Shown: positions 3,157 through 34,655, counted from the stretch's first letter. The stretch is DNA of 64,000 nucleotides from Bacilli bacterium (GCA_045589955.1 JAZNQD010000009.1:118814-182813); one strand, 5' to 3'. Numbers and translations are program-made. The notes: generated by a model from the letters alone, not told the origin.

Positions 3157-4059
3157 TTATTTATATTGTGTAAGCAAATCCCTATAACCACTACAAGACG
3201 GACCATCATAATCCAAATTTAAAAAGTAATTTGCCATACACTTTAATTTAGAAGTGCAGTTTCTACAAATTTTATCTCGCTTTTTTTCCATTTCTATAAA
3301 ATAGTTATTAATTTCGTCCAAATTATCCATCTCACGCAAAGAAAAATTATTATTTTCAAAGGTTTGTACTGCGAATTTATCATTTGGAGTCATATACAAC
3401 GTTTTAACATTATAATTATCTATATTTAAAATACCTTCTAATTGTAATTTATTTTGAAAAGCAAACTTCATTTTATGAGATAATCTTAAAAACGTTCGTA
3501 CAACTTCTTCGTATTCATCATAGCCCTTAAATTTATACCTAGTATGAATTGTTTGATGAAAAGGTACAATTTCCCAAGATTTTATTTTTAGGATATTTAA
3601 TTGCTCAATAATAGCACTCTGGTCAGTTTTACAAGATATATCTAAAGATTTTACATTTATTATTTTACCCGTATCAACAGCAGCTTTAATATTTGAAAAA
3701 ACTTGTTGTTTAAATGGACTATAATCATTAAAGTTGTATTTAACATTAATAATATCACAGTTATTGATTATGCCCTTTTTAAAATTAATAAAATTAGTTT
3801 CAACAATAATTTTTTTGCAATGTATCTTTAAAATATTATAAAGCATCTCAAAATATAAATCTGAAAGTAAAGCTATTTCACCACCAGATACTTTAATTTG
3901 AGCAATATCATATTTTCGACTGATACTTGATAAACTTTCATCTAACCAAGATAAACTCATTGTATTTTGGTTTTGTTTTTCGTGACTATATAAACAAAAA
4001 CCGCAATTTTGATTACAACGATAAAGAGGAATAAGATTTACTCTAATTTGAGGTTTCAT
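3157..4059 (-). CDS. radical SAM protein with SPASM-like C-terminal Cys cluster; paralog of 23573..24481
   Basis: CNQNCGFC (CxxxCxxC) near the N-terminus, SGGEIALL glycine motif. C-terminus CRNCTSKLKC...CSGYRDLL aligns with ...CHACKYYNKC...CSGLYNLL of the 23573 ORF. Track start at 4065 is TTG; ATG at 4059 has SD GGAGA. Confidence 0.7.
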   Translation of the reverse strand: MKPQIRVNLIPLYRCNQNCGFCLYSHEKQNQNTMSLSWLDESLSSISRKYDIAQIKVSGGEIALLSDLYFEMLYNILKIHCKKIIVETNFINFKKGIINNCDIINVKYNFNDYSPFKQQVFSNIKAAVDTGKIINVKSLDISCKTDQSAIIEQLNILKIKSWEIVPFHQTIHTRYKFKGYDEYEEVVRTFLRLSHKMKFAFQNKLQLEGILNIDNYNVKTLYMTPNDKFAVQTFENNNFSLREMDNLDEINNYFIEMEKKRDKICRNCTSKLKCMANYFLNLDYDGPSCSGYRDLLTQYK

Positions 4060-4061
4060 AT

Positions 4062-4634
4062 TCAATCTCCAAAAATCATAGTTAATTTTTTAGCCAAGTT
4101 ATCTGCTGCTTTATACGCTTTTTCGCCGAACTCTTTAGTTTTTATAATAAACAATCTAGCTTGCGGATCAGACTTATCCAAATTGATTTCATACCATATA
4201 TTCTTATCTAAGAAACGACCTAATTTCTCTACATAAGATATATTTTCAACAATGAATGATACCCACAATTCTTCTTTGCCATGTCCGCAACAACTTCCTT
4301 TTGTTGTAATCCCTGGAATTAAATTTAAACTTTTTACCAAAGAGACTACTTCCGAATCTAATTCAGTAATAGGATAGTCTATATATACATCTATACCACT
4401 AAACAAATCTACATACATAGCGGTATTAAGCATATCTATACTAGTAAGCTCTTTAACGATATGTTCTGGATTAGCTTCAACGCTATACCGAGGATTACCA
4501 TCTTCTATGAAGAATAAAGTATTATCGAAACTAATCAAGCCTTGTTTTTTAGTAGATATTATTTGACCAGCCGCAAAAACTTCACCTGTTTCACGCCAAC
4601 TTAGCTTTATCCAATCACCTTCACTATAAATCAT
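4062..4634 (-). CDS. hypothetical protein
   Basis: ORF inside the radical-SAM operon. Track start at 4664 is TTG; the first ATG (MIYSEGDW) is at 4634. Confidence 0.4.
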   Translation of the reverse strand: MIYSEGDWIKLSWRETGEVFAAGQIISTKKQGLISFDNTLFFIEDGNPRYSVEANPEHIVKELTSIDMLNTAMYVDLFSGIDVYIDYPITELDSEVVSLVKSLNLIPGITTKGSCCGHGKEELWVSFIVENISYVEKLGRFLDKNIWYEINLDKSDPQARLFIIKTKEFGEKAYKAADNLAKKLTMIFGD

Positions 4635-6237
4635 TACGTACCACCCATTTACTATTAAATACAACTCTATCCATATGTGGAGTACGTTTTAAAAAGGCTA
4701 TTGCTTGTTCTGGTGTTTCTATAATCGGCTCATTCTTACCATTAAATGATGTATTAATTAAGCAAGGAATACCAGTCGCTCTATAAAACGCCATTAAAAG
4801 TGAATATAATTCTGGATTTTGCTCTTTTTCTAAACACTGTGGTCTTGTAGTCATATCGATATGACAAACTGCACTTATTTTGCGTTGCCATTCTGGTCTA
4901 ATCTTTAAAGTACGTAGCATAAATTCTGTTAAATCTTTAGATGGTGTATCAAAAACCATATCAAATAATTCAGCCGGTACAATAGGAGCTAAAGGTCTCC
5001 AGTTTTCACGATGCTTAACATAATTGTTGATTACATACAAAGCATCTCTATCCGCCGGATTTGCTAAAATAGAACGATGACCTAAAGCACGCGGACCGAT
5101 TTCGGAACCACCTTGAAACCAACCAACTACCTTACTATTACGCAATGCTAATACCAATTCGTTTTCATCATAAGCATCTGGACTTTTTTCACAAGCTGCC
5201 AAAATTTCTTCATCAGAATACGTTTGACCGACATAAGAATTTTTTAAACGTACATTGTTAATTTTATCGCCATATTTTAAAGCAGCCGAAAAAGCGTGTC
5301 CCGCTGCAACCCCGGCATCATGTGGAGCAGGTCCAGCAAATACATTTTTAAATAATCCAGATTCTACTACTAGATTATTACCTATACAGTTTTGAATACA
5401 ACCACCTGATAAAATTAAATTTTCTTCATTAGTTAATTCTTTGGCATATTTAACTACTTCCATAAATATTTCATTATAGTTTTCTTGAATAGTAGCTGCC
5501 ATATCAATATAATATAAAATATTACATTCATCTGCTGTTCTGAGAGTATATGGATAAAAATTACGTTTTAAATAATATTGCATGTTTAAAGAAGCATCTT
5601 CATTAACAATATTCGTAAAATTAGCTATTATTTCACCATTTTCCCAACGTAAAACTCTAACAGGTGTAGGTCTACCATATGAAGATAAACCCATAAATTT
5701 ACCTTCACTAAATTCACCCAAATCCGCCATTGCAACTGAAGCACTATAATACATTTTACCAAGAGACACACCCTCTGTGTATTTCTTAAGTATTTTTATC
5801 TCATTGTCTTTACAATGTGCAATAGTAATACCATCTTTACCGTCACCGTTACCATCAACAATTACCGCAACAGCACTATCAAAACCACTTTGAAAAAACG
5901 AATCACAAACATGTCCCATGTGATGATCGTAATAATAAAATTCTGGAATTTTTTTACAATTAGGGTCAATTATATCTACCACTCGTTTCGCAAACCAATC
6001 ACGTACTCTTGCTTCATGTGGTATAGCAATTACATCGATATCATCTAACGTTAAATTATTGTCTTTTAAGATTTTTTGTACAGCTAATCGTGGAAATTGT
6101 TCACCAACAGAATGCTTTAATCTATTTAAACGCTCTTCTTCTAAATTAGCGATTAATTCCCCGTCTATTACTAGTGCTGCCGAAGCATCATGATTTTGTG
6201 GACAATCAAGACTACCGCTTATTCCTAATATTTTCAT
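4624..6237 (-). CDS. carbamoyltransferase (NodU/CmcH/TobZ family)
   Basis: N-terminus ILGISGSLDCPQNHDASAALVIDGEL...EERLNRLKH matches the NodU/CmcH N-terminal Kae1-like signature (LGIS..HDsAAAL..dG...EER..R.KH). C-terminal ENWRPLAPIV and SFNGKNEPII match the CmcH C-domain. ATG at 6237 has SD AAGGGGG; the track start at 6255 is TTG. Confidence 0.7.
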   Translation of the reverse strand: MKILGISGSLDCPQNHDASAALVIDGELIANLEEERLNRLKHSVGEQFPRLAVQKILKDNNLTLDDIDVIAIPHEARVRDWFAKRVVDIIDPNCKKIPEFYYYDHHMGHVCDSFFQSGFDSAVAVIVDGNGDGKDGITIAHCKDNEIKILKKYTEGVSLGKMYYSASVAMADLGEFSEGKFMGLSSYGRPTPVRVLRWENGEIIANFTNIVNEDASLNMQYYLKRNFYPYTLRTADECNILYYIDMAATIQENYNEIFMEVVKYAKELTNEENLILSGGCIQNCIGNNLVVESGLFKNVFAGPAPHDAGVAAGHAFSAALKYGDKINNVRLKNSYVGQTYSDEEILAACEKSPDAYDENELVLALRNSKVVGWFQGGSEIGPRALGHRSILANPADRDALYVINNYVKHRENWRPLAPIVPAELFDMVFDTPSKDLTEFMLRTLKIRPEWQRKISAVCHIDMTTRPQCLEKEQNPELYSLLMAFYRATGIPCLINTSFNGKNEPIIETPEQAIAFLKRTPHMDRVVFNSKWVVRNDL

Positions 6238-6259: not shown

Positions 6260-7219
6260 TTAAATATACATTTCTTGAATCATTTTTTTATCACACAACA
6301 TACACGCAGGTGAATCTGAATACGATGCATATATATCATTATGTCCGCATGGTAAATCTGTAAAAGGCTCATCTTCTTCAGACTCATGTAAGGTTTCTTT
6401 ATTACGTATAAATTTACGATTTCTTTTTGTTTCTAAATTATAATTTTTACGTACTTCTTCTGCTCGTAAATCTGTACTAATTAGCTTTTCGTATTCACCT
6501 ATACCTTCTTGCTCATAAAATTTTCTTAAAAACTTCAAAAACAATTTACGACTAGGGAAGAATGGTCCAAGCACTTTATTTATTTCAGCATTTTCTAAAT
6601 GTTGTAATCCTGTCGGTTTAACCGGATTTTTCAAAAAAATCGTTGTATGATATTTTTCTCTGAAATCTTTAAATTTGAGTTTACCATCTAAGTATTCATT
6701 TATATAAGCTTCAGTTAAAATACTAGTGGTATTAATACTAACTTCAGGATATTCAGCATGTAATTTAGCTAAATGATATTCCCAAGTTTCAAACATTTTC
6801 TCAGTGTGAAATCTTCCAAAAGTATCGTATGAAGTCAAAACCCAAACATTGGCTTTATCATCTATTCTATCTAAAGTTTCATATAAATGTTTTTGATCTC
6901 CGATTAATAAAGAAGCATTTAACCATATTTTCTTTATATATTTTTTATTAAGCATATCATTTGATACATCAATCATTTCCATGAATTTATTGTAAACAGC
7001 TTCTGTATTTAATTGTCCTTGAAAGAAGTCTCCTCCAATAAAACCTAAAACTTCATGCTCATCTGGTTTAAATTCTCTTATTTCATCAATGGCTGTTTGT
7101 AAAGATTGTAATTTTAACTTTTCAGCTGTATGTAAATTATCATTGCCCAATGTACAAAAAGTACACTTACAATTACATTCTCTCCACAATTCATATTGTA
7201 ACTGTTTACTCATTGGCAT
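6260..7219 (-). CDS. radical SAM protein, family 1 (ELW..CNxKCxFC type)
   Basis: ELWRECNCKCTFC (CxxxCxxC), FIGGDFFQGQLNTEAV glycine motif, C-terminal CGH...C..CD cluster. Paralog of the 10759, 7760 and 13542 ORFs. Confidence 0.75.
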   Translation of the reverse strand: MPMSKQLQYELWRECNCKCTFCTLGNDNLHTAEKLKLQSLQTAIDEIREFKPDEHEVLGFIGGDFFQGQLNTEAVYNKFMEMIDVSNDMLNKKYIKKIWLNASLLIGDQKHLYETLDRIDDKANVWVLTSYDTFGRFHTEKMFETWEYHLAKLHAEYPEVSINTTSILTEAYINEYLDGKLKFKDFREKYHTTIFLKNPVKPTGLQHLENAEINKVLGPFFPSRKLFLKFLRKFYEQEGIGEYEKLISTDLRAEEVRKNYNLETKRNRKFIRNKETLHESEEDEPFTDLPCGHNDIYASYSDSPACMLCDKKMIQEMYI

Positions 7220-7763
7220 CTTCTTTCAATTTAATATTTATAAAATTACCTTTTTCAAAATCTTCCGTGTACATAATGCTATCAATAGTATTTGGAACCT
7301 TTTCTTTTACAACTACGCCTAAATAATCATAAACCGTTGTACTAGCTTCTTCACGCTCAGCATTTACTACCTCTAAATAACCATTCGCATTACATTCTAA
7401 GAAAATTTCAGCAAGCTTTGTATCTTTTTTAATAATTAATTCCGACGCAGTTAAATTCTGAATAAACAAACAAATTGTATCACCATCATAACAGCATCCA
7501 CCTTTAATTATATACTTTGTAGGAATAGCCACATCTTCCTCGGTATCAGATTCACCAAAAGAAACGGCTTGTCCATATTTACCTAAATACAATTCATTTT
7601 CAATATCTAAGCGCATTTTAGTATCAAAGTAAACACCTTCTCTTGCGTTTAAATGGATATCTTGTTTGGCATATAATTGTTTTCTGCTAGAATCTTCGTC
7701 TAAGCATTCATTAGATAAATATACTAAGTCTGAATCACCAAATCTAAACATCTGATCTATCAT
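7206..7763 (-). CDS. hypothetical protein
   Basis: 185 aa. ATGA overlap with the upstream gene. No motif recognised. Confidence 0.45.
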   Translation of the reverse strand: MIDQMFRFGDSDLVYLSNECLDEDSSRKQLYAKQDIHLNAREGVYFDTKMRLDIENELYLGKYGQAVSFGESDTEEDVAIPTKYIIKGGCCYDGDTICLFIQNLTASELIIKKDTKLAEIFLECNANGYLEVVNAEREEASTTVYDYLGVVVKEKVPNTIDSIMYTEDFEKGNFINIKLKEDANE

Positions 7764-8686
7764 AAATAAGCATCCCTATCTAAATTATTTAAATCACATA
7801 ATACACACTTATCGCTGTCAGCATAGCATTTATATAAGATACTGTGTCCGCATTTTTCATTTATTACTTCTTTACCGTCAGATAATACCGGTTGAGCTGT
7901 TAAATCTGCAGTGTCTCTATCTTGTAAACCAGTATATTTAAACGTACAAGAATTTTTAGTAGATTGTAAAAAGTTATAATAGACTTCACTACAATTTGTT
8001 CTTAAATACTTCATAAATTCCAAAAAATCTACACGTTTGAAATTAAAATCTGTCAATTTAAAGCCTGTTTTTATGGGATGCGGATACAAAAATGTTAAAA
8101 TATTACCAGGGATAAATTCTTTCGTAAACTGATTTACTTCAAATTTACCTTCTTTCCAAGCATCGATTAAATATTGAGTAAGAATCATTTGAACGCCTAC
8201 TCTGTAATTATATCTTTTATGGAAATCATTAATATTATTTAAACACAATAACCTAGATTCCTCATCTTTAAAGCGATATTTTAAATCATACGAAAAGTTA
8301 ATATCTACCTTATCAATACCAACTGCATCCACAATCCTATCAACAACTCTATATAAAAACGTTGGATCATACAAACCATTGGTAACAGTTGAGTACTTAC
8401 AATATGGATTTGGGGAAACTTTTAATACTTTTTCAATAATGATATCAATTAACTCAATAAAAGAATCTTGTAATTTTTTATCAGTAATATAATAAAGCTC
8501 ACCACCAAGTAAAGATATACCGTTCGAGAATTTATCTTTAAAATCAATGTAGTTAATATTTTCTTTTATTTTATCTAATAGTACAAACTGTTTCTTTTTT
8601 GAATACGGAATTCTATCTGCACGTAAACAAAACTTACAGGCATTACAACAATTAGACCACACTGAATATTGTATCATATTAGACAT
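7760..8686 (-). CDS. radical SAM protein, family 1
   Basis: SVWSNCCNACKFC, LLGGELYY, C-terminal CGHSILYKCYADSDKCVLCD. SD GAGAG upstream. Confidence 0.75.
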   Translation of the reverse strand: MSNMIQYSVWSNCCNACKFCLRADRIPYSKKKQFVLLDKIKENINYIDFKDKFSNGISLLGGELYYITDKKLQDSFIELIDIIIEKVLKVSPNPYCKYSTVTNGLYDPTFLYRVVDRIVDAVGIDKVDINFSYDLKYRFKDEESRLLCLNNINDFHKRYNYRVGVQMILTQYLIDAWKEGKFEVNQFTKEFIPGNILTFLYPHPIKTGFKLTDFNFKRVDFLEFMKYLRTNCSEVYYNFLQSTKNSCTFKYTGLQDRDTADLTAQPVLSDGKEVINEKCGHSILYKCYADSDKCVLCDLNNLDRDAYL

Positions 8687-8688
8687 TA

Positions 8689-9711
8689 TTATTCTCTCAT
8701 TCTGTTTATAGCCAAATTCTTATTTATAATTTTTAACAATAGTTTTAAACCTTCTAAAGCCTTTTCTTTTGGGTGTCTAACAAATTCTTGATAACGAATA
8801 CGAATAAAGCCCATATAATTATCATGTTCACTCACACGAATTTTGTAACTATCAAGTTTGTCCCATTCGGCTTGTGTATATTTCATACCTTTAGTTTCAA
8901 TAGAAAAAATGTGGTCAACCGTTTGTGAATATAATCTAAACACTGAAGTATCTGCCACCAATTTACTGAAATACTGTATCATTATATTTTTAAATAGACT
9001 CATCTTATAACGATTTTGTAAAATGATATCCAAACGTCTAAGATATTCTTTGGCCCAATTATACGCTTTAATACCATAACCGTCTTCTTTAGTTATCATC
9101 ATTCCCATATCGTATTCAGGTACTAAAGAATGGGCAGTATATAAAACATAATCGTAAATTGAATAATCACGAGGTAACAAAAACATACCATGTACGTCGT
9201 CAATCATTATTTTGAAATTTACATTGTGTTCTTCTAATTCTTTTTTTAACTCAACATAAAAGTTTTGAGGTGTTATTTCACCAGTAGATAGCTGTGTACC
9301 AATAATATATACAAATACTTTTTTATAACCTTTTGTTTTTTGTACGATTTCTTTTGTCTTATATGAACGAATATCCTGTTCTGATTGTACAAATAACACA
9401 TTCTTACAATTTTCTAAGCATTTACGTACTGAACCATGCTCATATTGAGTAGAAATCACTAAGGTATCATCATCAACTTCTCTTTCAAATACTTGTTCGA
9501 TTAATGCGGTTCCACTATCATCAAATACCAAGTTTCTATCATGTATAGATACATTAGCAAATGGCATTCTGTTAAAATATTCTTGACACAAAGCCAAATA
9601 TTGCTCATCAGAAACAATTTCTGGTTCACCAGTTCTGCCTATACCTAGAAGTTCATTTTCTTCTTCACTAAACGGTTGAAAATCCAAATACCATTTAATC
9701 AATTCATCCAT
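8689..9711 (-). CDS. PLP-fold (class V aminotransferase / cysteine desulfurase-like) paralog A
   Basis: Motif string IIGTQLSTGEITP ... IMIDDVHGMF ... DYVLYTAHS resembles the fold-type-I pattern h..ETGhi.P ... hDavQs.G ... D.hs.SgHK (recalled from memory). The Schiff-base Lys position reads S. Track start is GTG at 9720; ATG at 9711 has SD GAAGGTG. Confidence 0.35.
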   Translation of the reverse strand: MDELIKWYLDFQPFSEEENELLGIGRTGEPEIVSDEQYLALCQEYFNRMPFANVSIHDRNLVFDDSGTALIEQVFEREVDDDTLVISTQYEHGSVRKCLENCKNVLFVQSEQDIRSYKTKEIVQKTKGYKKVFVYIIGTQLSTGEITPQNFYVELKKELEEHNVNFKIMIDDVHGMFLLPRDYSIYDYVLYTAHSLVPEYDMGMMITKEDGYGIKAYNWAKEYLRRLDIILQNRYKMSLFKNIMIQYFSKLVADTSVFRLYSQTVDHIFSIETKGMKYTQAEWDKLDSYKIRVSEHDNYMGFIRIRYQEFVRHPKEKALEGLKLLLKIINKNLAINRMRE

Positions 9712-9712
9712 A

Positions 9713-10759
9713 TCAGTCACCTTCTACAACTTGTTGTATAAAATCATCAGTTAAACTACTAGTCAAAGCTTTATCGATAATTTTTAAGCACTTAGGCAAC
9801 AAAGAATCATTATTTATAAACCAATGACTACGTAAAGAAATAAAACCTTCCCCATCAGTATCTGTTGTAATCAATAAATTTATTTTATTACACAATGCAA
9901 CACTATTTTCAGAAATATTAAACTCTTTTAAACGTAAATAAAATATATAAGGTGCAACTAATTCTCGTGATATTTTATCTAAGTTTTTTATATATTTACT
10001 GTAATATTGAATGCACAATGCTCTAAACAAATTAAATTTATTTGCACGTGATATCACAATTTCTAACCGTTTTAAATACAATTCACCCCAATTATAAGCG
10101 TTTATCCCTAGAAATTGTTGCTTACTAATTAGAATTCCCATATCAAAACCCATACAAACAGCATGAGCAGTACCTATTACGTAATCAAATAAAGTATAAT
10201 CACGTGGAATTAAAAACATACCTTGTACATCATCAAGTATTAGAATATGTTGTACATCATTTTTAATAAAAAGATTTTTCAACTCTACAAAAAACTCTTG
10301 AGGTGTTATTTCACCGGTAGCATTTTGAGTCCCAATTATATAAACAAATACTTTTTTATATTGTTTAATGCTCTGCTGTATTTTATGAAAATTAAATGCT
10401 CGAATATCATTGTATTGATTTATTTCCAAAACATTTTTATACTCATTTATAATATTTTTAACACTTGGATGTTCAGCATTGCTAGTAATAATTAAAGTAT
10501 CTTCATCGACATATTTTGCAAATAATTTCTTTATAAACGTAGTAGCAGATACCTCGAAAGTCAAAAAACTATTATTGATCGTACAATTTGAAGCAAGCAT
10601 CTTGTCAAAAAATCTCATAGATACACTTTTAAAAGCTTCGGTATTAAATTTTGGCTCGATATAACTTTTTTCAGACAAGTCATGTGATAAATTTGTCTTA
10701 ACGATTTCTTTATCAACATCACTTAAAGGTAAATATGTATTCCACCAGTTTAAAAGCAT
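9713..10759 (-). CDS. PLP-fold-like paralog B
   Basis: Paralog of 8689..9711 (IIGTQNATGEITP ... ILDDVQGMF ... DYVIGTAHA). Track start at 10762 is TTG; ATG at 10759 overlaps the upstream stop (TGATG). Confidence 0.35.
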   Translation of the reverse strand: MLLNWWNTYLPLSDVDKEIVKTNLSHDLSEKSYIEPKFNTEAFKSVSMRFFDKMLASNCTINNSFLTFEVSATTFIKKLFAKYVDEDTLIITSNAEHPSVKNIINEYKNVLEINQYNDIRAFNFHKIQQSIKQYKKVFVYIIGTQNATGEITPQEFFVELKNLFIKNDVQHILILDDVQGMFLIPRDYTLFDYVIGTAHAVCMGFDMGILISKQQFLGINAYNWGELYLKRLEIVISRANKFNLFRALCIQYYSKYIKNLDKISRELVAPYIFYLRLKEFNISENSVALCNKINLLITTDTDGEGFISLRSHWFINNDSLLPKCLKIIDKALTSSLTDDFIQQVVEGD

Positions 10760-11706
10760 CAAATCTCTAAGTCCCGTATCATTTGTTTATCGCATATCGC
10801 ACATTTATTACTATCAATATATGCACTATAAACAGATAAATGCCCACAATCCATGATATAATCTATTCTCGGATTATATGTTTCTGTACCATTTTCTTTA
10901 TTTCTATTTACTACTGCATCATGTTCTTCATACTCACAAATTAATGTATCTGCACGATATTGAATATTGAACAATTTGTCATAAAAAGCTAAACCTTCTT
11001 CTCGCTTTACTTTCTTTAAAAAACGTAAGAAGGCATCACGTTTCGGAAAAAAGTTACCGAGTACTTGATTTGTATGCTCTTTTGAAATATACATACCTTC
11101 TGGACCAGCACACAATTTAACAAACATCGAAGTATTATATGTTGACATTAAATTTTTAAATGAAAATTCATCTGCCAGATATTTGTCTATTAAATCGCCG
11201 GTTATAATTGTAGTTGTATTAAACTTTATTTTGGGATAGAGTTTTCCTATATTCAACATATGATATGACCAATTATCTTCCATTTTTTTAGTATGAAAGC
11301 GTCCCATTGTATCATATGAGGTTAATAACCAAAAATTATCCTGATAATCTTTGAAAATATCTAAAGTGGTATATAAATCAGTTTGTTCGCCTATTGTAAG
11401 TGTTGCATATAGCCAAGTTGTTTTTATGTAACCAGCTTTCATCAAATCGGCGGTCGTTTGCATTAATTCAAAAAATTTATTCTTTACAGCCTCTGTATTT
11501 AACTGTCCTTGAAAAAATTCACCGCCAATAAAAGCAATAGTATCATACTCCTTATAAATATCTAAATTTTTTATTGTAGATAAGGCTTTTTCTAAATTAT
11601 ACAGCTTTGTTTCTTCCGAAGTAAATCTATTTGTATTACCTAAGTAACAAAAAGTACATTTAGAGTTACATTCTTTCCATAATTCAAATTGTAATTGCTT
11701 TCCCAT
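10759..11706 (-). CDS. radical SAM protein, family 1
   Basis: ELWKECNSKCTFC, FIGGEFFQGQLNTEAV, C-terminal DCGHLSVYSAYIDSNKCAICD. Confidence 0.75.
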   Translation of the reverse strand: MGKQLQFELWKECNSKCTFCYLGNTNRFTSEETKLYNLEKALSTIKNLDIYKEYDTIAFIGGEFFQGQLNTEAVKNKFFELMQTTADLMKAGYIKTTWLYATLTIGEQTDLYTTLDIFKDYQDNFWLLTSYDTMGRFHTKKMEDNWSYHMLNIGKLYPKIKFNTTTIITGDLIDKYLADEFSFKNLMSTYNTSMFVKLCAGPEGMYISKEHTNQVLGNFFPKRDAFLRFLKKVKREEGLAFYDKLFNIQYRADTLICEYEEHDAVVNRNKENGTETYNPRIDYIMDCGHLSVYSAYIDSNKCAICDKQMIRDLEI

Positions 11707-11708
11707 AT

Positions 11709-12626
11709 TTAATTTCCATATAATTTAAAAAACATTTGTGCAACATCATACATCTTGTTATTAGAATCTATGAAGCCTATATCATATTTTTTAGTTTTAT
11801 CACTTAATTCACATCTACCGTCGCCGCTTCGTCTATCTTCTGCTACTCTAACTTTACCATTTTCTATAAAAAACAATGTGTTAGACCTCAATTCCATAGA
11901 CAAAAAAGAATCTCTATTAATCAAATCTTTATGAATAGCTTTCTTTAAAAATTTCAAAAAAGTTTCTTTTTTAGGAAAAAACCCCGGCAAATCCTTTTCA
12001 CAAGCATATTTATCTACATAATATAAGCCAGAAGAAGGCTCTATGTAATCAACTGAAGTATTAAACACTTCTTTAAAGGCTTTTAAATCAAATTCATCAT
12101 TTAATACAGCATTTAAAAACCATTCTGTTAAAATAATTTCAGTATGAAGACGTAACTCTGGATAGTTATCTTTTAAAAATAACATATTACGCTTCCACAA
12201 TTCTTTATGTTCTTGAGTTTTAAATCTATACTTGACATCAAAAGAGGTACATAATACAATTTTATCTAATAATTGTATTTTACGTAAATAATCCAAAAAT
12301 GGTATTAAATCAATATTAATATCGTAGATTAATGCCGCGGTTATGTATATCTTTGAAAAATTAAGTTTAGATACATCATAAAATAAATTATAAAAAACAG
12401 GCTTTATAAGTGGATCTAATTCGCCATTGAAAAATTCACCACCAATAAAGCCTATCTCATCGTGTTTTATGATTTGTAACTCTTTTAATTTAGCCGTAAT
12501 AAACTGTAAAGATTGTAACTTATCAATTTTAGGTTGACCTTTATTACAACAAAATTTACAACCTATCTTACAATCTTTCCATAATTCAAATTGAACAAAT
12601 GTATTTTCATTTTTAAAATTAGTCAT
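11709..12626 (-). CDS. radical SAM protein, family 1b (no C-terminal Cys cluster)
   Basis: ELWKDCKIGCKFC, FIGGEFFNGEL. The C-terminus lacks the CGH..C..CD motif. Close paralog of 12619..13542. The printed sequence differs from the track by 1 nt near the start. Confidence 0.7.
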   Translation of the reverse strand: MTNFKNENTFVQFELWKDCKIGCKFCCNKGQPKIDKLQSLQFITAKLKELQIIKHDEIGFIGGEFFNGELDPLIKPVFYNLFYDVSKLNFSKIYITAALIYDINIDLIPFLDYLRKIQLLDKIVLCTSFDVKYRFKTQEHKELWKRNMLFLKDNYPELRLHTEIILTEWFLNAVLNDEFDLKAFKEVFNTSVDYIEPSSGLYYVDKYACEKDLPGFFPKKETFLKFLKKAIHKDLINRDSFLSMELRSNTLFFIENGKVRVAEDRRSGDGRCELSDKTKKYDIGFIDSNNKMYDVAQMFFKLYGN

Positions 12627-13542
12627 TTACAAGCTTACACAATTCAGTTGCTATATCTTCCATAGAATCTTCGGAATCAATAAAACCTAATTCATATTTT
12701 TTAGATGTATCCCTACATTTTACTCTAAAACCTGGTTCACGTCTATCTTCATAACAAACGAAATCCCCACAATCTAAGTGATATATTCTACTTGCTCTGA
12801 TTTGATACGAAATTAAGCAGCTTAAGTCTATTTCTTTGTTTTTTAAACCAGCTTTCTTTAAAAATTCAATAAAACTTTTCTTTCTTGGAAAAAATCCAGG
12901 ACAAGCTTTTTCACAGTCCGCTTTTGTATTATAGTACATACCAGAAGAAGGTTCGATATAATCTACACGTGTTCTATATTTTTCACAAAACTCTTTAATA
13001 CTAAACGTATCATTTAATACTGCATCAATAAAATGTTGCGTCATAATAGTTTCAACATGTGTCTTTAAATCAGGATAATCTTTTAATAAAGCAAGCATAT
13101 TACTTTCCCATAACTCTTGCTTACCAGGTATATTAAAACGATATTTTAAATCATAAGAAGTACACAATAAAACCTTATCCATTATATTAATTTTACGCAA
13201 ATAATCTAAAAATGGCAATAAATACGGTTTCATATCATAAATTAAAGATGTAGCAACATAAATTTTATTAAAATGCATTCCTGCTAATTTATCTATTAAC
13301 TTATAAAATAATGCTCTAACTTCTTCATTTTCGATTTGATTATCAAATATTTCTCCACCGATAATACCTACTTCTTCATAATCAAATACTTCTGGATCAT
13401 CTAATTTATTTAACGTAAACTCTAATGCCCATTTTTTATCAACGGACATTTGACAACGCTCTGAACAAAATTTACAGCCATTTCTACAATCTTGCCATAG
13501 CTGATATTGAATAAACTTATTAGGTGCAATATATCTTTCCAT
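12619..13542 (-). CDS. radical SAM protein, family 1b
   Basis: QLWQDCRNGCKFC, IIGGEIFDNQ, YIEPSSGMYY region shared with the 11709 ORF. TAATG start/stop overlap. Confidence 0.7.
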   Translation of the reverse strand: MERYIAPNKFIQYQLWQDCRNGCKFCSERCQMSVDKKWALEFTLNKLDDPEVFDYEEVGIIGGEIFDNQIENEEVRALFYKLIDKLAGMHFNKIYVATSLIYDMKPYLLPFLDYLRKINIMDKVLLCTSYDLKYRFNIPGKQELWESNMLALLKDYPDLKTHVETIMTQHFIDAVLNDTFSIKEFCEKYRTRVDYIEPSSGMYYNTKADCEKACPGFFPRKKSFIEFLKKAGLKNKEIDLSCLISYQIRASRIYHLDCGDFVCYEDRREPGFRVKCRDTSKKYELGFIDSEDSMEDIATELCKLVND

Positions 13543-14408
13543 TACGCATACTCACTAAATACATCTAATAAATCACAACAGAAGCAGGTATTTTTTTCTG
13601 AATATCTTTTAAAGTTAACAGAATGCCCACAATCAGACATTGCGCAACTACAAAACTGAAATTCGTTATCTTTATACATATAAAGCCATTTTTCTTGTGT
13701 TATGGTCATGTTTGGCACATATTTAGCTAGATAGCCAGGTAAATCTAAATCTACGCGTTTAAGGGCTTTAAAAATGGCATTACGAGGAGCAGTTAATTCA
13801 GAATCTAAAACTATATAAGGTATTAAATTAATCCAACATTTATATTCAGCTGTAAATTCACTTAATTTAAAATTGCCATCTAAAATTTCTTGACAAACCT
13901 TTTTTGTAAGAATTGTATTTGTAACTATATTACATTTAGGATATACTCGATTAATCCATTTTAAATTAGATAGCATCAATTGTCTATCATCTTCAGTTCT
14001 GAATCTTCCTTCTAAATCATATGATGTAGTAAATTTAAGTCTATCAAATAAATTACATTTGGATATCATATTAAGCATGGAATTTAAACCGGTTAAATCT
14101 TTATAGATTAAGTTAGTATTTATATATAACAAATCTATAATACCAACTTCCATCAATCCAACGATTTGATTAAAAAATTCTTCTAAAGCATTGAAATCAC
14201 TAGGTTTATCAAATATCTCACCACCACAAATGAGTATATGACTACCTTTTATGAATTTATCACTATCTATAAATGATAAAACTTCATTTAAAATAAATTT
14301 TCTTTTTTCTTGATTGTATAAACGGGGTTTTTCGCGTTGGAAACAAAACTTACAATTATTATTACAGTTATCCCAAACGAGAAATTCATAAATCTTTTTA
14401 TATTTCAC
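13542..14408 (-). CDS. radical SAM protein, family 1
   Basis: LVWDNCNNNCKFC, ICGGEIFDKP, C-terminal CAMSDCGHSVNF...CFCCD. Start is GTG at 14408, preceded by GGGGGG. Confidence 0.7.
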   Translation of the reverse strand: MKYKKIYEFLVWDNCNNNCKFCFQREKPRLYNQEKRKFILNEVLSFIDSDKFIKGSHILICGGEIFDKPSDFNALEEFFNQIVGLMEVGIIDLLYINTNLIYKDLTGLNSMLNMISKCNLFDRLKFTTSYDLEGRFRTEDDRQLMLSNLKWINRVYPKCNIVTNTILTKKVCQEILDGNFKLSEFTAEYKCWINLIPYIVLDSELTAPRNAIFKALKRVDLDLPGYLAKYVPNMTITQEKWLYMYKDNEFQFCSCAMSDCGHSVNFKRYSEKNTCFCCDLLDVFSEYA

Positions 14409-15001: not shown

Positions 15002-15691
15002 TTAAATATCCATATAAGCAATAAATGTAGATGAACTAGAAGAACAGCTTGAGCTTGATGAAGATGAAGATGAGGAACTAGAAGAACTCGAACTTGAACT
15101 AGAATAAGTTAAAAGAGTATTTGCATAGTGAATGTTCGATGTGTTGTTAACAGCGGCAAGTAACTCATTTACACTAGTTTGTATTTCTGTTGCACTAAAA
15201 TCTATATCATCATGACGTAAAGACACTGTTGAAAAATTACTAGCGTCATCATCGTAAAAGATAAATGTTCCTGCCCCAAAACTATTTGTAACAGCAATCA
15301 ACTTAACAGCCAAAAAAGATGCAAAGTTATTATAAAAATTCATAATACCTTTGAAAGACACAATTTCAGTCGGTTTAGTTGCAATTCCACGTAATTTCAA
15401 AAAGGAATTAAGTTGATTTTTTACAGTAGATGTAGAAACAACTTGCAACTTTGGATCATTAACTTGAGAATGTTGAATTAATGTCTTGGTTGTACGGGTA
15501 AAGTTACTATTTCTACCACCTATGACAAAAGCCACGGCCGTTGTTTTATTATTCCAACTATATCCGTGTTGTAATTGTTTTGGTACATCACTTCTAAACT
15601 TATCAATATTACAGCATTTACTCAAAATATATGATTGAGCACTATCTAATAAATCTTGATAAGTAATTGTATTATTGCTCTTTATCGCCAT
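15002..15691 (-). CDS. family-A protein with C-terminal poly-Ser/Cys tail (putative modification substrate)
   Basis: 229 aa ending ...[37 protein letters not shown] GAGGG upstream. N-terminal core shares the ITY...C.N.D...GYS pattern with the family. Confidence 0.7.
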   Translation of the reverse strand: [229 protein letters not shown]

Positions 15692-16987: not shown

Positions 16988-17527
16988 TTATGCCAATGTT
17001 ACGCTATATGTACAAACATACGGTCTAATATTTTGTCTTACCACACTTGTTATAAAATTAATTAAAGTTGTAATATCTGCATCATCAATAAGTCGATAAG
17101 TGGTAGTCGTAGTAATATTCTTTAGTGATGAATAAGTAGTATTTCCTGTTAGATATACCATGTAATTTGTAGTTGAATATTGACTAGCTGCTACTCCAAT
17201 TTTAGTACTACAGAATGAAATGATATCCTCAACGAAATTTAAAAATTCGTTTGCTACAATATTAGTATTTAGTTTATCATTTACCTTTATTGTCGTTAAA
17301 AAATTCGTCATATCTGTAGCAACTGTTGTACTAGCTACTTGAGATACGCCTTTTGAAATTGTAACTGTAGACTTAGCGTTTGTAGTGATTGTTGTTACTA
17401 CACTATATCCTGTTTTAAAACAAGCCGGTAAGTTAGCAATGGTTGTATCAAAATTCATACAATTTGCCAAGATCCAACTTTTAACGTGCTCAACTACAGT
17501 ATTATAAGTTATTGCACTAAGAGCCAT
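16988..17527 (-). CDS. family-B paralog (untailed)
   Basis: Starts MALSAITYNTVVEHVKSWILANCMNFD...LPACFKTGYS; paralog of 14429..15001. Follows the 17529 ORF with a one-base gap. Confidence 0.6.
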   Translation of the reverse strand: MALSAITYNTVVEHVKSWILANCMNFDTTIANLPACFKTGYSVVTTITTNAKSTVTISKGVSQVASTTVATDMTNFLTTIKVNDKLNTNIVANEFLNFVEDIISFCSTKIGVAASQYSTTNYMVYLTGNTTYSSLKNITTTTTYRLIDDADITTLINFITSVVRQNIRPYVCTYSVTLA

Positions 17528-17528
17528 T

Positions 17529-18209
17529 TTAGATATCCATATAAGCTATAAACGTAGAAGAACTAGAAGAACAACTTGAACTACTCGAGCTTGATGAAGA
17601 CGAAGAGCTAGAAGAAGAGCAACTTGAACTATAAGATAGCATTACGTTTACTAAGCGATGTTGAATTGGTTTATTGATACAGTTTAACAAATCAGTAAAT
17701 GATACCTTTATTTGATCAGCCGTAAAGTTTGCATCTGCTGGAGTTAAATTACTTAAAGTTGGAAAATTAGTTGCTTCACTATTATAGAAAACGTATTTAT
17801 TATTTGAATAAGCACTTGTTAAAAAAACTACTTTGGTTGCAATAAATGCCGAAACAACATTACAAAAAATCATTAAATTTTTAAATGAAATCAATTCGCC
17901 AGTATTATCTGCAATTCCATTTGAAGTAAGAAAAGAATTAAATTGAGAATTAACTGTAGAAGATGGTACTGCTTTTAAAATTGTATCGTTTACCGTAGCA
18001 GTAGCTGTTAATGTAAATGTACCTGTTGTACTATTACCCGTTACATATGATACTTCCTTACTAGCCACTTGCCAAGAACTATTATTTACAAAAGCACTAG
18101 GTAAACCAGATGGAAGTGCATCAATATTTTGACAAACCTTTTTAATCTGAGTTAATACAGCATCAACAGCGTCTTTATATTTAATCGTTTGTCCTGTTGC
18201 GAGAGACAT
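17529..18209 (-). CDS. family-A protein with C-terminal poly-Ser/Cys tail (putative modification substrate)
   Basis: 226 aa ending ...[37 protein letters not shown]. The last 14 residues are identical to those of 15002..15691. First gene of the minus-strand operon. Confidence 0.7.
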   Translation of the reverse strand: [226 protein letters not shown]

Positions 18210-18274: not shown

Positions 18275-18691
18275 ATGAATGAAAATCTAAAAAATAGAAG
18301 AAAATTAGCATATTACATAAACAAATGGGACGACATAAATCTACCATATCATGAAGATTACAAAAATATACCCGAACAAGTGATTTCTTTTTTCAAAACT
18401 GAATCTAACTTGGTATATCCGGCAAAGACAATCTTCGTAGCTATAATTTATGCTAAATGCTTGGAACAATACTTTGATGTGCCTTTTTATGAAAGTTTAG
18501 ATGATATCGAATTGTTATTTGATGACAAATATTTTAACAAGTATACATATTCTCAATTCAAAAATGAATATGATTATATACTAAGTACTCTAACAGATAT
18601 TTTAAACTATCCGGCAGCACAAAAAACGATAGACTATTTTAAAAAAGAGTTTCTCTATGGAATTGATTATAAAACCAACCGGTCGTTGTAA
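18275..18691 (+). CDS. hypothetical protein
   Basis: 138 aa. First gene of the plus-strand operon. Overlaps the next gene by 35 nt. Confidence 0.45.
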   Translation: MNENLKNRRKLAYYINKWDDINLPYHEDYKNIPEQVISFFKTESNLVYPAKTIFVAIIYAKCLEQYFDVPFYESLDDIELLFDDKYFNKYTYSQFKNEYDYILSTLTDILNYPAAQKTIDYFKKEFLYGIDYKTNRSL

Positions 18692-19613
18692 TTTTAATTG
18701 TAAATTTTGCAGTGCGAATTTATTAGATATTAAACACAGTACAACAGTTTCTACTCAATTAAAAACTGTTTTAAATACAATAAAACCTGATAATATTATT
18801 TTTACCGGTGGAGATCCATTACTTGTAAGTCCTGACTATTATAATGAAATCTTATCGCTTGGAAACTGGAATATTGCTTTTACTACCAATTTAAAAGATT
18901 TTTATTTAAATCCCACAAAATGGATATCACTGTTTAAAAATCCGAGAGTTGGCATAGGAACCTCTTTTCAATATGGAAACAAAAGATTATGGGATAACAA
19001 CGCTCCTTATACCGAAAAACTATTTATTGATGTTATGCAAAAATTTTATAATGAAATTGGATATACTCCTCCTTTTATTTCATTAATAGATACAGATAAC
19101 GAAGATAAAGCTTTGGACCATGTATACTTAGCTAAAAAATTAAATACAAAATGTAAACTTAACGGTACATTGCCTCTTGGTAAGTCAAAATGTTTTTATC
19201 CAACTTATAAAATGATAAAAATATGGTTAGAAATCAAAGACTTAGGTTTAGAAGAATATTTAGATACACAAATACAGTTTTATGAAGGGGGTTGTAATTT
19301 CAACACAAGCCTTTATTGTGAATCTACTATTCGTACATTTTGGTTAAACGAACATGGTGAAGTACAATATGGAAATTGTGAAGATTGTTCAACACTAGGG
19401 CAACGTATTCCTTTAGATAAAATCAGACCAATACCGGTAAAAAAACAAATTGAAATAAATGATACTATAAACGATAAATGTTGTTATTGTGAATTATTTA
19501 AATTGTGTAACGCTTGTCGTTCCTTACAACGCATAAATAAACAAACCCCCGAGCACTGTGAAGAAATGCTAAAATTAAAACCAAGAATAATAGAGGCAAA
19601 ATGGAAGATATAA
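18657..19613 (+). CDS. radical SAM / SPASM-like protein, family 2
   Basis: GRCNFNCKFC, FTGGDPLL, C-terminal CCYCELFKLCNACR Cys cluster. Confidence 0.75.
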   Translation: MELIIKPTGRCNFNCKFCSANLLDIKHSTTVSTQLKTVLNTIKPDNIIFTGGDPLLVSPDYYNEILSLGNWNIAFTTNLKDFYLNPTKWISLFKNPRVGIGTSFQYGNKRLWDNNAPYTEKLFIDVMQKFYNEIGYTPPFISLIDTDNEDKALDHVYLAKKLNTKCKLNGTLPLGKSKCFYPTYKMIKIWLEIKDLGLEEYLDTQIQFYEGGCNFNTSLYCESTIRTFWLNEHGEVQYGNCEDCSTLGQRIPLDKIRPIPVKKQIEINDTINDKCCYCELFKLCNACRSLQRINKQTPEHCEEMLKLKPRIIEAKWKI

Positions 19614-20401
19614 AGACATTATATGCTATCCCACATTATAATTGTAACTTAGCATGTCCACATTGTGATTTATTTAAAAAACAAACAAATTATGATGAAG
19701 AGCATTTTATGTATTCATTAAATAATGTAAAAGCAGAAGAAATCGTTTTGTTTGGTGGTGAACCTCTTTTATATAAAGACAAATTACTAAAAATACTACA
19801 AACAAATAAAATATCATCTATTTCAACAAATCTATTAAACATTGATTTAGATATCTTAAATAATCTAAAAAAATATAATATACACATAGCTACATCATGG
19901 AATAATATACGATTAAATAAACAACAATATATAACATGGATAAATAATATACATAAAATAAATATATATAATATTGACTGTATTGTACTTATAACTCTGA
20001 CGGATGATCTGATACACAATACTGAGAAACTGACTGATACGCTGACTGATTTAGATAAAACAAGAATAAGAGGTGTATTATTTGAACAACTATTGGATTA
20101 TTCTAAAGACCAAAGTTTTTATGAAAAAGTAGACACGTTCCTATGTAAGATATCCGAAAATTGGCAATATTCGTTCAAAAACTTAATTATTGACAAATTA
20201 AATACTTGGAATTGTGATTGTAAAAAAACATATACTCTCGAACCAACCGGAATAATCCGTAAAGGTTGTCCACAATATATTCAACCACAAATAGTCAATG
20301 AATGCTTATCATGTTCTTTAGCAAATATATGTAAACCTTGTCCGTTACAAAAGCACTGTTCTTTTCCTAAAAAATTATACGTGATGTTTAAAAATGCTTA
20401 A
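19601..20401 (+). CDS. radical SAM / SPASM-like protein, family 2
   Basis: HYNCNLACPHC, FGGEPLL, C-terminal CLSCSLANICKPCPLQKHC. Confidence 0.7.
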   Translation: MEDIKTLYAIPHYNCNLACPHCDLFKKQTNYDEEHFMYSLNNVKAEEIVLFGGEPLLYKDKLLKILQTNKISSISTNLLNIDLDILNNLKKYNIHIATSWNNIRLNKQQYITWINNIHKINIYNIDCIVLITLTDDLIHNTEKLTDTLTDLDKTRIRGVLFEQLLDYSKDQSFYEKVDTFLCKISENWQYSFKNLIIDKLNTWNCDCKKTYTLEPTGIIRKGCPQYIQPQIVNECLSCSLANICKPCPLQKHCSFPKKLYVMFKNA

Positions 20402-21404
20402 TACTAAATATGCTTTAGATATTGTACTTTTTTCTGACTGTAACTTAAATTGTTTACATTGCTTTCAAACACACATAAAAAATGATATAGATAAACAATA
20501 CTTAAATGACTTGCCACAAATTATACATAAACATTTATTAGAAAAGCTTAAAGCAAATCCTAATATAAATGAAATAACTTTATCATTACGTGGCGGTGAA
20601 ATTTTTCAAGATAGATTTTCCGAAGACCAATTAGAACAATACCTTAATGTCTTTAAATTCGTCATACATAATTCACACGAATATTACCCTCATATAAAAT
20701 TTAATTTACATTGTATGTCAAATGGAATTTTTACAAAAACGAATCGTATCATAGATTTTTTAAAACATAACAATATTTCAATATCTTTATCTTATGACGG
20801 TTACGGTAGATTTAATACAAATACACTTTCTAAATTCAAAGAAAATTGTTTGGAACTAAAATCATTTATTAAAGACATTAGTATAACCTTAACCAAGCCT
20901 TCTGTTGAACAATACCTTTCCTCTGATGAATTACTTTTCTTCACTAATCATAATCTATTACTGGACTTTAACTATTACATTCCAACAAAAAATATCGATG
21001 ACTTAATAATATCAGATGAAGTATTATACGCCTTTTACAATTACTTATTAGAAAAGCATATATTTAATTGCAAATATTTAATCGATTTATTTGAAAGTCT
21101 TCTTACAAATAAAAAAATATATCCTTCTTGTAATTGTCAAAATACCGAAGTTTTAGTTAATGGAAAATATTATACAAACTGTACACTTAATAGTTCTTTA
21201 TCAAATATACAAATAAAAAACAAAGCTTTAAACAAAAGACAATGCTTATTTTGTGAAAATTATAATAATTGTTATGGTTATTGTTGGTTATCTATTCTTC
21301 ATGATAAATATATAATTTCAGAATGTCCACACAAAAAACTATTAATACAGATTAAAACGAACCCAATTTATATCAATAATTACTTAAAATGGAAAACACA
21401 ATGA
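20394..21404 (+). CDS. radical SAM / SPASM-like protein, family 2a
   Basis: SDCNLNCLHC, RGGEIFQD, C-terminal RQCLFCENYNNCYGYCWLSIL. Confidence 0.75.
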   Translation: MLNTKYALDIVLFSDCNLNCLHCFQTHIKNDIDKQYLNDLPQIIHKHLLEKLKANPNINEITLSLRGGEIFQDRFSEDQLEQYLNVFKFVIHNSHEYYPHIKFNLHCMSNGIFTKTNRIIDFLKHNNISISLSYDGYGRFNTNTLSKFKENCLELKSFIKDISITLTKPSVEQYLSSDELLFFTNHNLLLDFNYYIPTKNIDDLIISDEVLYAFYNYLLEKHIFNCKYLIDLFESLLTNKKIYPSCNCQNTEVLVNGKYYTNCTLNSSLSNIQIKNKALNKRQCLFCENYNNCYGYCWLSILHDKYIISECPHKKLLIQIKTNPIYINNYLKWKTQ

Positions 21405-23585: not shown

Positions 23586-24481
23586 ACGGTTTATCTATAA
23601 TGCCCTCTTTATATTGTAACTATAACTGTGAGTATTGCTATTTAGGGGATTTAAGAAAAAACAAAACTCTTTTAGATTTAGATATACTCGCTAATCGTTT
23701 AAATGAAATAACACAAAACTATACAATTCAACATACAACTTTATATGGTGGTGAAATATCTCTATTACCACAAACATACTTAAATGATTTATTGCAACTT
23801 GTAAAAGATTATAATCCAGCGTTTGTAACAAATTTATCCCAAGAATGGTTTTTAAATTACTGCTTAATAAACAATGTTAAACTTAGTATATCGTTAAATG
23901 AAGAAAGAACCAATTACAATAAAACGTTGCAGATTCTTAAGACGTTAAAAGGTATTAAATCAATTTGTTTATCTGTTGTTGTTTTACCTAGTTTACTAAA
24001 GAAAGATTCTTTTGAAATTCTAGATTTTTTTGAAGATTTAGGGTTTGATGTTATTTTTATTCAATATCACCCTTCTATTCATTCTAAAGTCGTTTATAAT
24101 ATCACAACAAAAGATTACAGTGATTTTTTATTACGTATCCTAAAAGCTAAATACGAACGCGACTACAAATTCAAAATACAAAATGAGATTGTGCTTAGAG
24201 ATACAACATACCGAGCAACGGCTGACAGTTTTATGTTTATTAATCAAAATGGTAATTTCAGTTCAATTAAATATAACGAGAAAGAAGAAGAATATTTCGT
24301 AGAATTTAATACTTTACAAGAATGGAAAGACTTTTGTAAGCAAGAACAAAAACTATATTATACAAAGTGTCATGCTTGTAAATATTATAATAAATGTAAA
24401 GCTGAACATTTAGTCAATCTAGAAAAAGATAATTGTTCAGGTCTATATAATTTATTAGAAGAATATTCACAAATTGGATAA
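23573..24481 (+). CDS. radical SAM / SPASM-like protein (paralog of 3157..4059)
   Basis: LYCNYNCEYC, YGGEISLL, C-terminal CHACKYYNKC...CSGLYNLL. SD AGAGGA. Confidence 0.75.
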   Translation: MELLNGLSIMPSLYCNYNCEYCYLGDLRKNKTLLDLDILANRLNEITQNYTIQHTTLYGGEISLLPQTYLNDLLQLVKDYNPAFVTNLSQEWFLNYCLINNVKLSISLNEERTNYNKTLQILKTLKGIKSICLSVVVLPSLLKKDSFEILDFFEDLGFDVIFIQYHPSIHSKVVYNITTKDYSDFLLRILKAKYERDYKFKIQNEIVLRDTTYRATADSFMFINQNGNFSSIKYNEKEEEYFVEFNTLQEWKDFCKQEQKLYYTKCHACKYYNKCKAEHLVNLEKDNCSGLYNLLEEYSQIG

Positions 24482-34652: not shown

Positions 34653-34655
34653 TAC

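Follow-up and report, generated by a model that had tools for sequence, protein, structure and literature searches.

A 64,000-nucleotide stretch of DNA deposited as Bacilli bacterium (GCA_045589955.1, JAZNQD010000009.1:118814-182813; hereafter the window) encodes six paralogous radical S-adenosylmethionine (SAM) proteins at positions 6260–14408. All genes of this array are on the minus strand, and each open reading frame (ORF) is named here by its first coordinate, counted over the whole window. Four of the ORFs end in a Cys/His motif, CGH..CxxCD, which is missing from the other two, 11709 and 12619. Comparison with related phages places these two ORFs in a widespread clade (clade B) from which the motif was probably lost once, early, before the clade diversified. 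The best overall explanation combines this single early loss with clade B enzymes that still work and a gene cassette that acts on Ser/Cys-rich protein tails, and we put its probability, taken as a whole, at roughly 0.6.

Six paralogous radical-SAM ORFs

A preliminary description of the window had proposed a tandem array of six paralogous radical-SAM ORFs in this region, and its coordinates and translations match ours. The CX3CX2C motif is present in all six, pairwise identities are 25%–45%, and a W, a G-G, an S-x-D, and an R-F are invariant across the set. The GG of a GGE motif is likewise invariant, with GGE in five ORFs and GGD in 6260. Profile comparison of clades D and B with hhalign gives a probability of 100% (E value 6e-67). 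Because the six ORFs are homologues, chance resemblance is not a concern. The term tandem fits in part: all six paralogues are on one strand, but three genes that do not encode radical-SAM proteins break the series (7206–7763, 8689–9720, and 9713–10762). The C-terminal motif has the distribution first described, being present in 6260, 7760, 10759, and 13542, and the strings common to 11709 and 12619 (DYIEPSSG[LM]YY, PGFFP[KR]K, and KY[DE][IL]GFIDS) had been quoted correctly. The residue preceding CGH, said to be always D or S, is instead P, K, D, and D in the four ORFs.

Distribution of the motif and polarity of its loss

Four old clades accommodate the ORFs: A (13542), B (12619 and 11709), C (7760), and D (10759 and 6260). 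In L002, a related phage from human gut, 13542, 7760, 10759 (in duplicate), and 6260 are each matched one to one, and the 12619/11709 pair has a single counterpart. The motif is kept in 16 of 16 clade A orthologues from related loci, in 19 of 19 clade C orthologues (one as CSH), and in 69 of the 70 full-length clade D representatives (50% identity). Clade D proteins among the matches listed keep C-x(1-3)-H..CxxC, including the variants CKKGH in P0101 and CNH in P0117; the only one without it, P0094, is a fragment that ends inside the motif. In clade B the motif is found in 0 of 120 clusters (90% identity), all 120 of which have CX3CX2C, and in 0 of 58 full-length representatives (50% identity). 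The loss had been described as confined to two adjacent local genes, and these counts show instead that it marks a widespread clade. As a separate observation, the distant phage locus L016 encodes a clade-C-like paralogue (4741–5697) in which CX4CX2C (CRENRCAFC) replaces CX3CX2C and the CGH..CxxCD tail is kept.

A neighbour-joining tree (200 bootstraps, saturated distances capped) was rooted with SPASM-type radical-SAM paralogues encoded on the plus strand of the window, for which core homology was detected at an hhalign probability of 98.6%. The rooted topology is (SPASM-type outgroup,(A,(C,(D,B)))), with bootstrap values of 98 for A, 82 for B, 100 for C, 70 for D, 84 for B+D, and 80 for C+B+D. 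Clades A, C, and D, among which B is nested, all carry the motif, which would thus have been lost a single time, at the base of B.

Clade D and clade B tails were compared by global profile-profile alignment and by the conserved anchor residues R251, R268, and D298. The loss follows from a deletion of ~10 residues over the CxH knuckle and from substitutions at the two C-terminal Cys positions, which in clade B are mostly S/K/T and D/E, turning CxxC into S/K-x-x-D; YIDSNKCAIC of clade D is aligned with FIDSEDSMED of clade B. Overall the ligand positions in B read D, S/T, S/K, and D, while the flanking YxxGFIDS is kept and the remaining tail, (D/N)RR ... KYEIGFIDS, is retained. The deletion and substitutions are placed at the ligand sites, and the motif is truly lost rather than misaligned, in agreement with the preliminary description. 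Pairwise global alignment of the tails was dropped as unstable and misleading; it paired, for example, DCGD of 12619 with DCGH of 10759.

Age and integrity of the clade B pair

Identity between 12619 and 11709 is 44%, and each is ~50% identical to the single clade B gene of L002. Besides near-identical copies, the closest orthologues reach 80% identity for the 12619 type (B1) and 69% for the 11709 type (B2), and both types appear together in three phage loci (L008, L011, and L012). The low identity of the pair and the separate orthologues in other phages indicate that B1 and B2 arose by an old duplication rather than by tandem copying at this locus. Values of dN/dS between L002 and a second locus, L006, are 0.18 for clade B, 0.16 for A, 0.10 for C, and 0.07–0.16 for D, and GGE and other family-conserved residues are kept in clade B. 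AlphaFold2 models of 10759 (clade D) and 12619 (B1) have predicted local distance difference test (pLDDT) scores of 94.1 and 95.9, and their elements come in the same order: six beta-alpha units are followed by a beta-hairpin, then a loop, and finally a C-terminal helix. The genes are also tightly packed in the minus-strand operon: the start of 12619 overlaps the clade A stop at 13542 (TAATG), the start of 11709 overlaps the 12619 stop by 8 nt (12619–12626), and a further overlap is found at 10759–10762.

In the predicted structures, the clade B fold and radical-SAM machinery are retained and only the ligands are lost. The hallmarks that are kept, together with purifying selection like that on the neighbouring genes, indicate that the clade B proteins are working enzymes. 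The contrary view, that the two genes are decaying or encode non-catalytic scaffolds, could draw on the missing C-terminal motif and on 12619, which has no Pfam and no PHROG match. It is strongly disfavoured and we consider it very improbable, given CX3CX2C in every clade B cluster, the conserved GGE, the dN/dS of 0.18, the pLDDT of 96, and ORFs that are intact and translationally coupled.

Nature of the C-terminal site and its fate in clade B

The proteins of clades A, C, and D terminate with a Cys3His(+Cys) knuckle, C-x-H-x12-C-x2-C-D, which in the predicted structure follows the (beta/alpha)6 core and the beta-hairpin, with CxxC capping the last helix. In the clade D model, the hairpin spans residues 254–269 and is followed by C287, H289, C302, and C305, with CxxC at the N-terminus of the last helix (303–312); this layout is compatible with a twitch domain, and clade B is without these ligands. 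A structural zinc and an auxiliary [4Fe-4S] cluster are about equally likely occupants of the site. The chance is close to even that CxH..CxxC is a reduced twitch-type auxiliary cluster whose loss altered the chemistry of clade B, leaving it without an internal acceptor for electrons or without a substrate bound to the cluster. This reading sharpens the suggestion in the preliminary description that the two paralogues became sub-functionalised, for example when an auxiliary Fe-S cluster was lost. The site sits where SPASM and twitch clusters do, the family is homologous to the SPASM-type paralogues of the same window with their CX2CX5CX3C tails, one more Cys is conserved in clades A and C, and auxiliary clusters with three Cys and an open iron site exist, as in MoaA (PMC9012708). 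Against a cluster, the tails have no SPASM match in Pfam and resemble, weakly, only RING- and YdjO-type zinc motifs; zinc knuckles typically combine a short spacer, such as the 12 residues here, with a His ligand and with CxxC at the N-terminus of a helix, and the fold is predicted equally well without ligands. It is plausible, if somewhat short of even odds, that the site is a structural zinc knuckle of treble-clef-like form, for which clade B has swapped in polar or charged packing with no change in reaction type, so that the clades would differ in substrate position or partner. This fits Cys3His at the extreme C-terminus, the CxxC helix cap, the replacement of ligands beside an unchanged YxxGFIDS flank, and the high pLDDT of the clade B tail; a structural neighbour, lysine 2,3-aminomutase, has a structural zinc site, which is Cys-rich and C-terminal. 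It fits less well with relatives that are SPASM-type enzymes and with the near-absolute conservation of the site in A, C, and D, which extends to the Asp that follows CxxC and suggests a role beyond stability.

Loss may not be the whole history of 12619. Its tail contains C242, C258, C263, C276, and C302. Across the 22 clusters of the B1 subclade, C242, C276, and C302 are conserved in 22 and C263 in 21, and none is conserved in B2. One of these residues precedes the hairpin, one is inside it, one follows it, and the fourth belongs to the last helix. B1 thus gained four conserved Cys at other positions later. A pattern of this kind is usually the mark of a metal site, so the original site of 12619 may have been replaced and not simply lost. 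The question had been raised whether the cluster was shifted and not lost. This is possibly true in part for 12619, given the clade-conserved Cys, and not for 11709, with its one tail Cys. Metal binding by 12619-type proteins through C242, C263, C276, and C302 is, in our view, rather unlikely. The near invariance of these residues in B1 alone and their twitch-like layout around the hairpin speak for it; a distant B1 member (L011 9070–10005) with Ser at the C276 position speaks against it, and it is inapplicable to 11709 and most of clade B, where tails have 0–2 non-conserved Cys. An exception among the deeper-branching members is a B-like protein of L016 with four.

A cassette shared by related phages

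A synteny sample of 18 related loci was drawn from ENA and IMG/VR. The cassette in these loci has the order [acidic ~240 aa][poly-Ser/Cys-tailed ~220 aa][tail-less paralogue][A][B]...[C][D], with a start-stop overlap between A and B in 15 of 18. Interleaved with these genes there is usually one for an aminotransferase-like protein, and a GSC[CS]GH protein usually closes the cassette; synteny extends to the distant, higher-GC (guanine-cytosine) L016. The tails consist of 20–30 Ser with 1–3 Cys, followed at the very end by x-FIAYMDI (...C-S(n)-x-FIAYMDI), and they are conserved among proteins that are only ~35% identical (e.g., L002 2602–3249 and L016 4048–4728). Their Ser codons are a mixture of AGY and TCN, so the tail is conserved at the protein level. 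In nearly all 18 loci, tailed proteins are encoded upstream of the genes of this family, usually just before the A-B pair. Coordinates of these features in the window are given in Table 1. The cassette is duplicated in L014 (5570–17411), where two tailed-protein triads are each followed by their own B, C, and D or A and B genes.

TABLE 1 Features of the radical-SAM array and its surroundings in the window
Feature	Position (nt)	Strand	Remarks
Clade A radical-SAM protein, 288 aa	13542–14408	-	CX3CX2C at nt 14343-14366; clade bootstrap 98
Tail of 13542, C255-x4-C260-G-H262-x12-C275-x-C-C278-D	13575–13646	-	Motif CAMSDCGHSVNFKRYSEKNTCFCC
Clade B1 radical-SAM protein, 307 aa	12619–13542	-	CX3CX2C at nt 13465-13488; without CxH..CxxC
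B1-specific Cys of 12619 (C242, C263, C276, C302)	12637–12819	-	
Clade B2 radical-SAM protein, 305 aa	11709–12626	-	CX3CX2C at nt 12549-12572
Tail of 11709, AEDRRSGDGRCELSDKTKKYDIGFIDSNNKMYD	11712–11843	-	Single Cys (C272), no metal motif
Clade D radical-SAM protein, 315 aa	10759–11706	-	CX3CX2C at nt 11647-11670
Tail of 10759, C287-G-H289-x12-C302-x2-C305-D	10792–10848	-	Motif CGHLSVYSAYIDSNKCAIC
Clade C radical-SAM protein, 308 aa	7760–8686	-	CX3CX2C at nt 8627-8650; clade bootstrap 100
Tail of 7760, C279-G-H281..C287..C294-x2-C297-D	7796–7852	-	Motif CGHSILYKCYADSDKCVLC
Clade D radical-SAM protein, 319 aa	6260–7219	-	CX3CX2C at nt 7154-7177
Tail of 6260, C291-G-H293-x12-C306-x2-C309-D	6293–6349	-	Motif CGHNDIYASYSDSPACMLC
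Acidic protein, 242 aa	15672–16400	-	Conserved triad upstream of the radical-SAM genes, third member
229-aa protein ending S19-C-S5-TFIAYMDI	15002–15691	-	Candidate substrate; directly upstream of the A-B pair
Tail-less paralogue of the poly-Ser protein, 190 aa	14429–15001	-	hhalign probability 99.8%; synteny
Second copy of the pair	16988–18209	-	Tailed protein 17529-18209, tail-less paralogue 16988-17527
Weakly SufS/class-V-aminotransferase-like protein, 349 aa	9713–10762	-	NCBIfam TIGR01979, E 5e-6, far under cut-off; orthologue in most related cassettes
Paralogue of the 349-aa protein, 343 aa	8689–9720	-	34% identity
185-aa protein within the array	7206–7763	-	No Pfam or PHROG match
NodU/CmcH-type carbamoyltransferase, 543 aa	4624–6255	-	Array end; Pfam Carbam_trans_C 1e-56, Carbam_trans_N 2e-31
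200-aa protein with conserved GSC[CS]GH	4062–4664	-	Closes the cassette in most related phages; no family match

The two aminotransferase-like proteins read TAH[SA] (TAHA in 9713) at the position expected for the lysine of SGHK that binds pyridoxal 5'-phosphate (PLP), as judged by eye, and produced no match in the PDB by sequence search or with a profile of nine orthologues. A homologue of the carbamoyltransferase is found inside the array of L016 (6581–8134), and there is none in L002-type cassettes. Downstream of the cassette, 3157–4065 (minus strand) encodes another type of radical-SAM protein, with a MoaA-like N-terminus (E value 2e-7) and the tail CRNCTSKLKC...C, that is 65% identical to the product of an L008 gene. 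A second array, on the plus strand, has seven radical-SAM genes (18657–24481 and 26882–27862), several with the canonical SPASM CX2CX5CX3C. Inside this array is a gene (24488–25168, plus strand) for a protein ending in YTCHxNCHxxC[HY]xxRxRR, which is also encoded in L018 (1904–2623) and L019 (1678–2367). Homology of this CHxx-tailed protein to the poly-Ser proteins was considered and is unsupported (hhalign E value 0.27).

Source of the window and distribution of the family

The window is AT-rich (GC content 26%–35%) and encodes phage functions, including a portal protein distantly like T4 gp20, GroES/GroEL, a ClpP-like protease, and tail-fibre-like proteins, and we assign it to a large uncultured gut or rumen phage. 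The ClpP-like protease and the phage's own GroES/GroEL pair are encoded on the plus strand at 31661–32362 and 34308–36302.

All curated Pfam and NCBIfam models scored under their cut-offs, which bears out the early remark that the N-terminal signature fits no named radical-SAM subfamily. Pfam Radical_SAM (PF04055) matched five ORFs at 17.6–23.8 bits (E values 5e-5 to 5e-3), below the gathering cut-off of 29.5. The top NCBIfam match was viperin (NF038283; 23.6 bits against a cut-off of 180), covering the first ~65 residues only, and TIGR00238 (KamA/lysine 2,3-aminomutase) scored 18.5 bits against a cut-off of 199, also in the N-terminal region only. PHROG 1802, a phage radical-SAM domain-containing protein, matched 6260, 10759, and 13542 (E values 1e-10 to 1e-11) over positions 42–285 of its 556-position profile, with no match to 11709, 12619, or 7760. 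Profile and single-sequence searches of the PDB reached an E value of ~0.03 over the CX3CX2C region only. A Pfam scan of the isolated tails (E values up to 10) gave noise-level RING/YdjO-type zinc-finger matches and no SPASM. Membership of the radical-SAM superfamily is clear from CX3CX2C, present in the six ORFs, in all 120 clade B clusters, and in every clade D protein among the matches listed, and from the six beta-alpha units of the AlphaFold2 models, which form the (beta/alpha)6 core and have radical-SAM enzymes as their top Foldseek matches. The SPASM seven-Cys motif (CX9-15GX4C ... CX2CX5CX3C ... C) is absent and PF13186 has no match in this family, whose tails have 3–5 Cys and a His within at most 24 residues, or none.

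Relatives among metagenome proteins number 525 at 90% clustering and 882 representatives at 50% identity (E value ≤ 0.001), 268 of these below 1e-30. The contigs that encode them come from human gut and comparable samples and reach ~290 kb. In GTDB the family is found only in metagenome-assembled genome (MAG) bins whose taxonomic labels disagree with one another; the contigs reach 283 kb and most likely represent mis-binned phage. Searches with tblastn of 50,697 cultured-phage records gave no match to 10759 at an E value of 1e-5, none to the poly-Ser protein, and one weak match to 13542 in a Pseudomonas phage (E value 4e-3). The family is unnamed and confined to uncultured large phages, and literature searches on phage radical-SAM arrays, on peptides made by the ribosome and modified after translation (RiPPs), and on poly-Ser and jumbo-phage contexts found nothing on it. 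Four double-length homologues (P0310, P0327, P0364, and P0134; 650–670 aa) match the family profile in two stretches and represent either fused tandem radical-SAM genes or gene-calling read-through. No informative Pfam domain was found in the N-terminal domains of fused homologues of 500–700 aa.

Proposed function

Modification of the tails is judged the most likely role of the array because the B1 model is nearest to peptide-modifying radical-SAM enzymes and because of the cassette synteny. The closest Foldseek matches of this model were EpeE (E value 1.8e-6), SkfB, anSME (template modelling [TM] score 0.50), and CteB. Judged from sequence and gene order, the tails are likely substrates. The four clades would then form a multi-step maturation set for Ser/Cys-rich C-terminal tails, in which the clade B step would need no C-terminal metal site. 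SPASM and twitch auxiliary clusters have been proposed as electron acceptors in two-electron oxidations (PMC9012708). If an auxiliary cluster with this electron-accepting role occupies the site in A, C, and D, the clade B step could be redox-neutral, for example through abstraction and return of a hydrogen atom; alternatively, clade B may act in complex with clade A, the clade with the richest Cys set. More tentatively, this family and the plus-strand SPASM-type array could together carry out a virus-encoded, RiPP-like maturation of the Ser/Cys-rich and CHxx-repeat tails, with the A/B split separating oxidative from redox-neutral steps; we think this possible, at less than even odds.

Several observations weigh against a single early loss and a cassette that acts on tails. 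The tree was built by neighbour-joining and its bootstrap values are moderate (70–84), clade A does not adjoin clade B in 3 of 18 loci, and in L015 the tailed-protein homologue beside the genes of this family has no poly-Ser tail. All TM scores are about 0.5 or below, and the clade D model is nearest to small-molecule enzymes, namely viperin-like enzymes, lysine 2,3-aminomutase, and DesII. The carbamoyltransferase and two aminotransferase-like genes in the array would also suit a sugar or nucleotide pathway. A serious rival is that the enzymes of the array act in the synthesis or modification of a small molecule, such as a nucleotide, a sugar, or a hypermodified DNA base, and not on the neighbouring proteins. 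It would account for the neighbours of the clade D model and for a carbamoyltransferase both here and in L016 beside aminotransferase-like genes, and thymidine hypermodification in phages pairs a radical-SAM enzyme with PLP enzymes (PMC8989533). Nevertheless, no 5-hydroxymethyluracil (5-hmU) kinase or amino-acid:DNA transferase is encoded nearby, the aminotransferase-like proteins seem to be without the expected lysine and match no solved structure, and the tailed proteins are tied to the array in nearly every locus. On balance we consider a small-molecule or DNA-modification pathway rather unlikely and prefer tail modification.

Significance

Among radical-SAM enzymes, those that have an auxiliary metal site and those that lack one are usually members of different families. 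Here close paralogues of one operon differ cleanly in a metal site, and the loss is phylogenetically polarised, which offers a natural experiment on the contribution of a minimal Cys3His site at the C-terminus. Loss of the motif is itself a modest evolutionary detail, and the surrounding uncharacterised cassette is of greater interest. It is common in gut and rumen phages of ~200–290 kb, with no cultured or characterised relative. If the tails are indeed substrates, these phages would encode a large and unexplored protein-modification chemistry.

Comparison with known systems

The closest parallel is with the SPASM/twitch maturases (anSME, EpeE/YydG, SkfB, and CteB, with BtrN and MoaA as twitch enzymes). 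They share with the phage family the CX3CX2C core, the beta-hairpin, a Cys-bearing C-terminal extension, and genomic pairing with proteins that have Cys/Ser-rich tails; they are also the nearest structural neighbours of the clade B model, and sequence homology links the family to the SPASM-type paralogues of the window. Unlike them, the phage family has Cys3His over 19 residues (none in clade B), no seven-Cys motif, no PF13186, and TM scores of at most 0.5, and its candidate substrates are proteins of ~220 aa rather than short peptides. The best Foldseek match of the clade D model, 9dfn (E value 3e-7, TM score 0.51), belongs to the viperin and viperin-like enzymes, which are similar in size, with a single domain and a C-terminal extension. 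Differences are that viperin has no C-terminal Cys/His site, that identity is 14%–16%, and that the profile score is 23.6 bits against 180. Lysine 2,3-aminomutase (KamA; 2a5h) is a structural neighbour as well, but TIGR00238 reaches 18.5 of the 199 bits required, and no PLP-binding region was found in the phage proteins.

The Campylobacter phages CP220 and CPt10 are likewise large and have 11–12 radical-SAM genes, some of them clustered and of unknown function (PMC2853527). Campylobacter phage proteins are among the distant structural matches in BFVD, but there is no detectable sequence similarity by tblastn with 10759 and 13542, and the neighbouring genes differ.

For the loss itself, the nearest analogy comes from a different protein class. 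Makarova, Ponomarev, and Koonin reportedly described in 2001 Cys-containing and Cys-less paralogues of zinc-ribbon ribosomal proteins. As proposed for clade B, all four metal ligands are lost there while the fold and function are kept.

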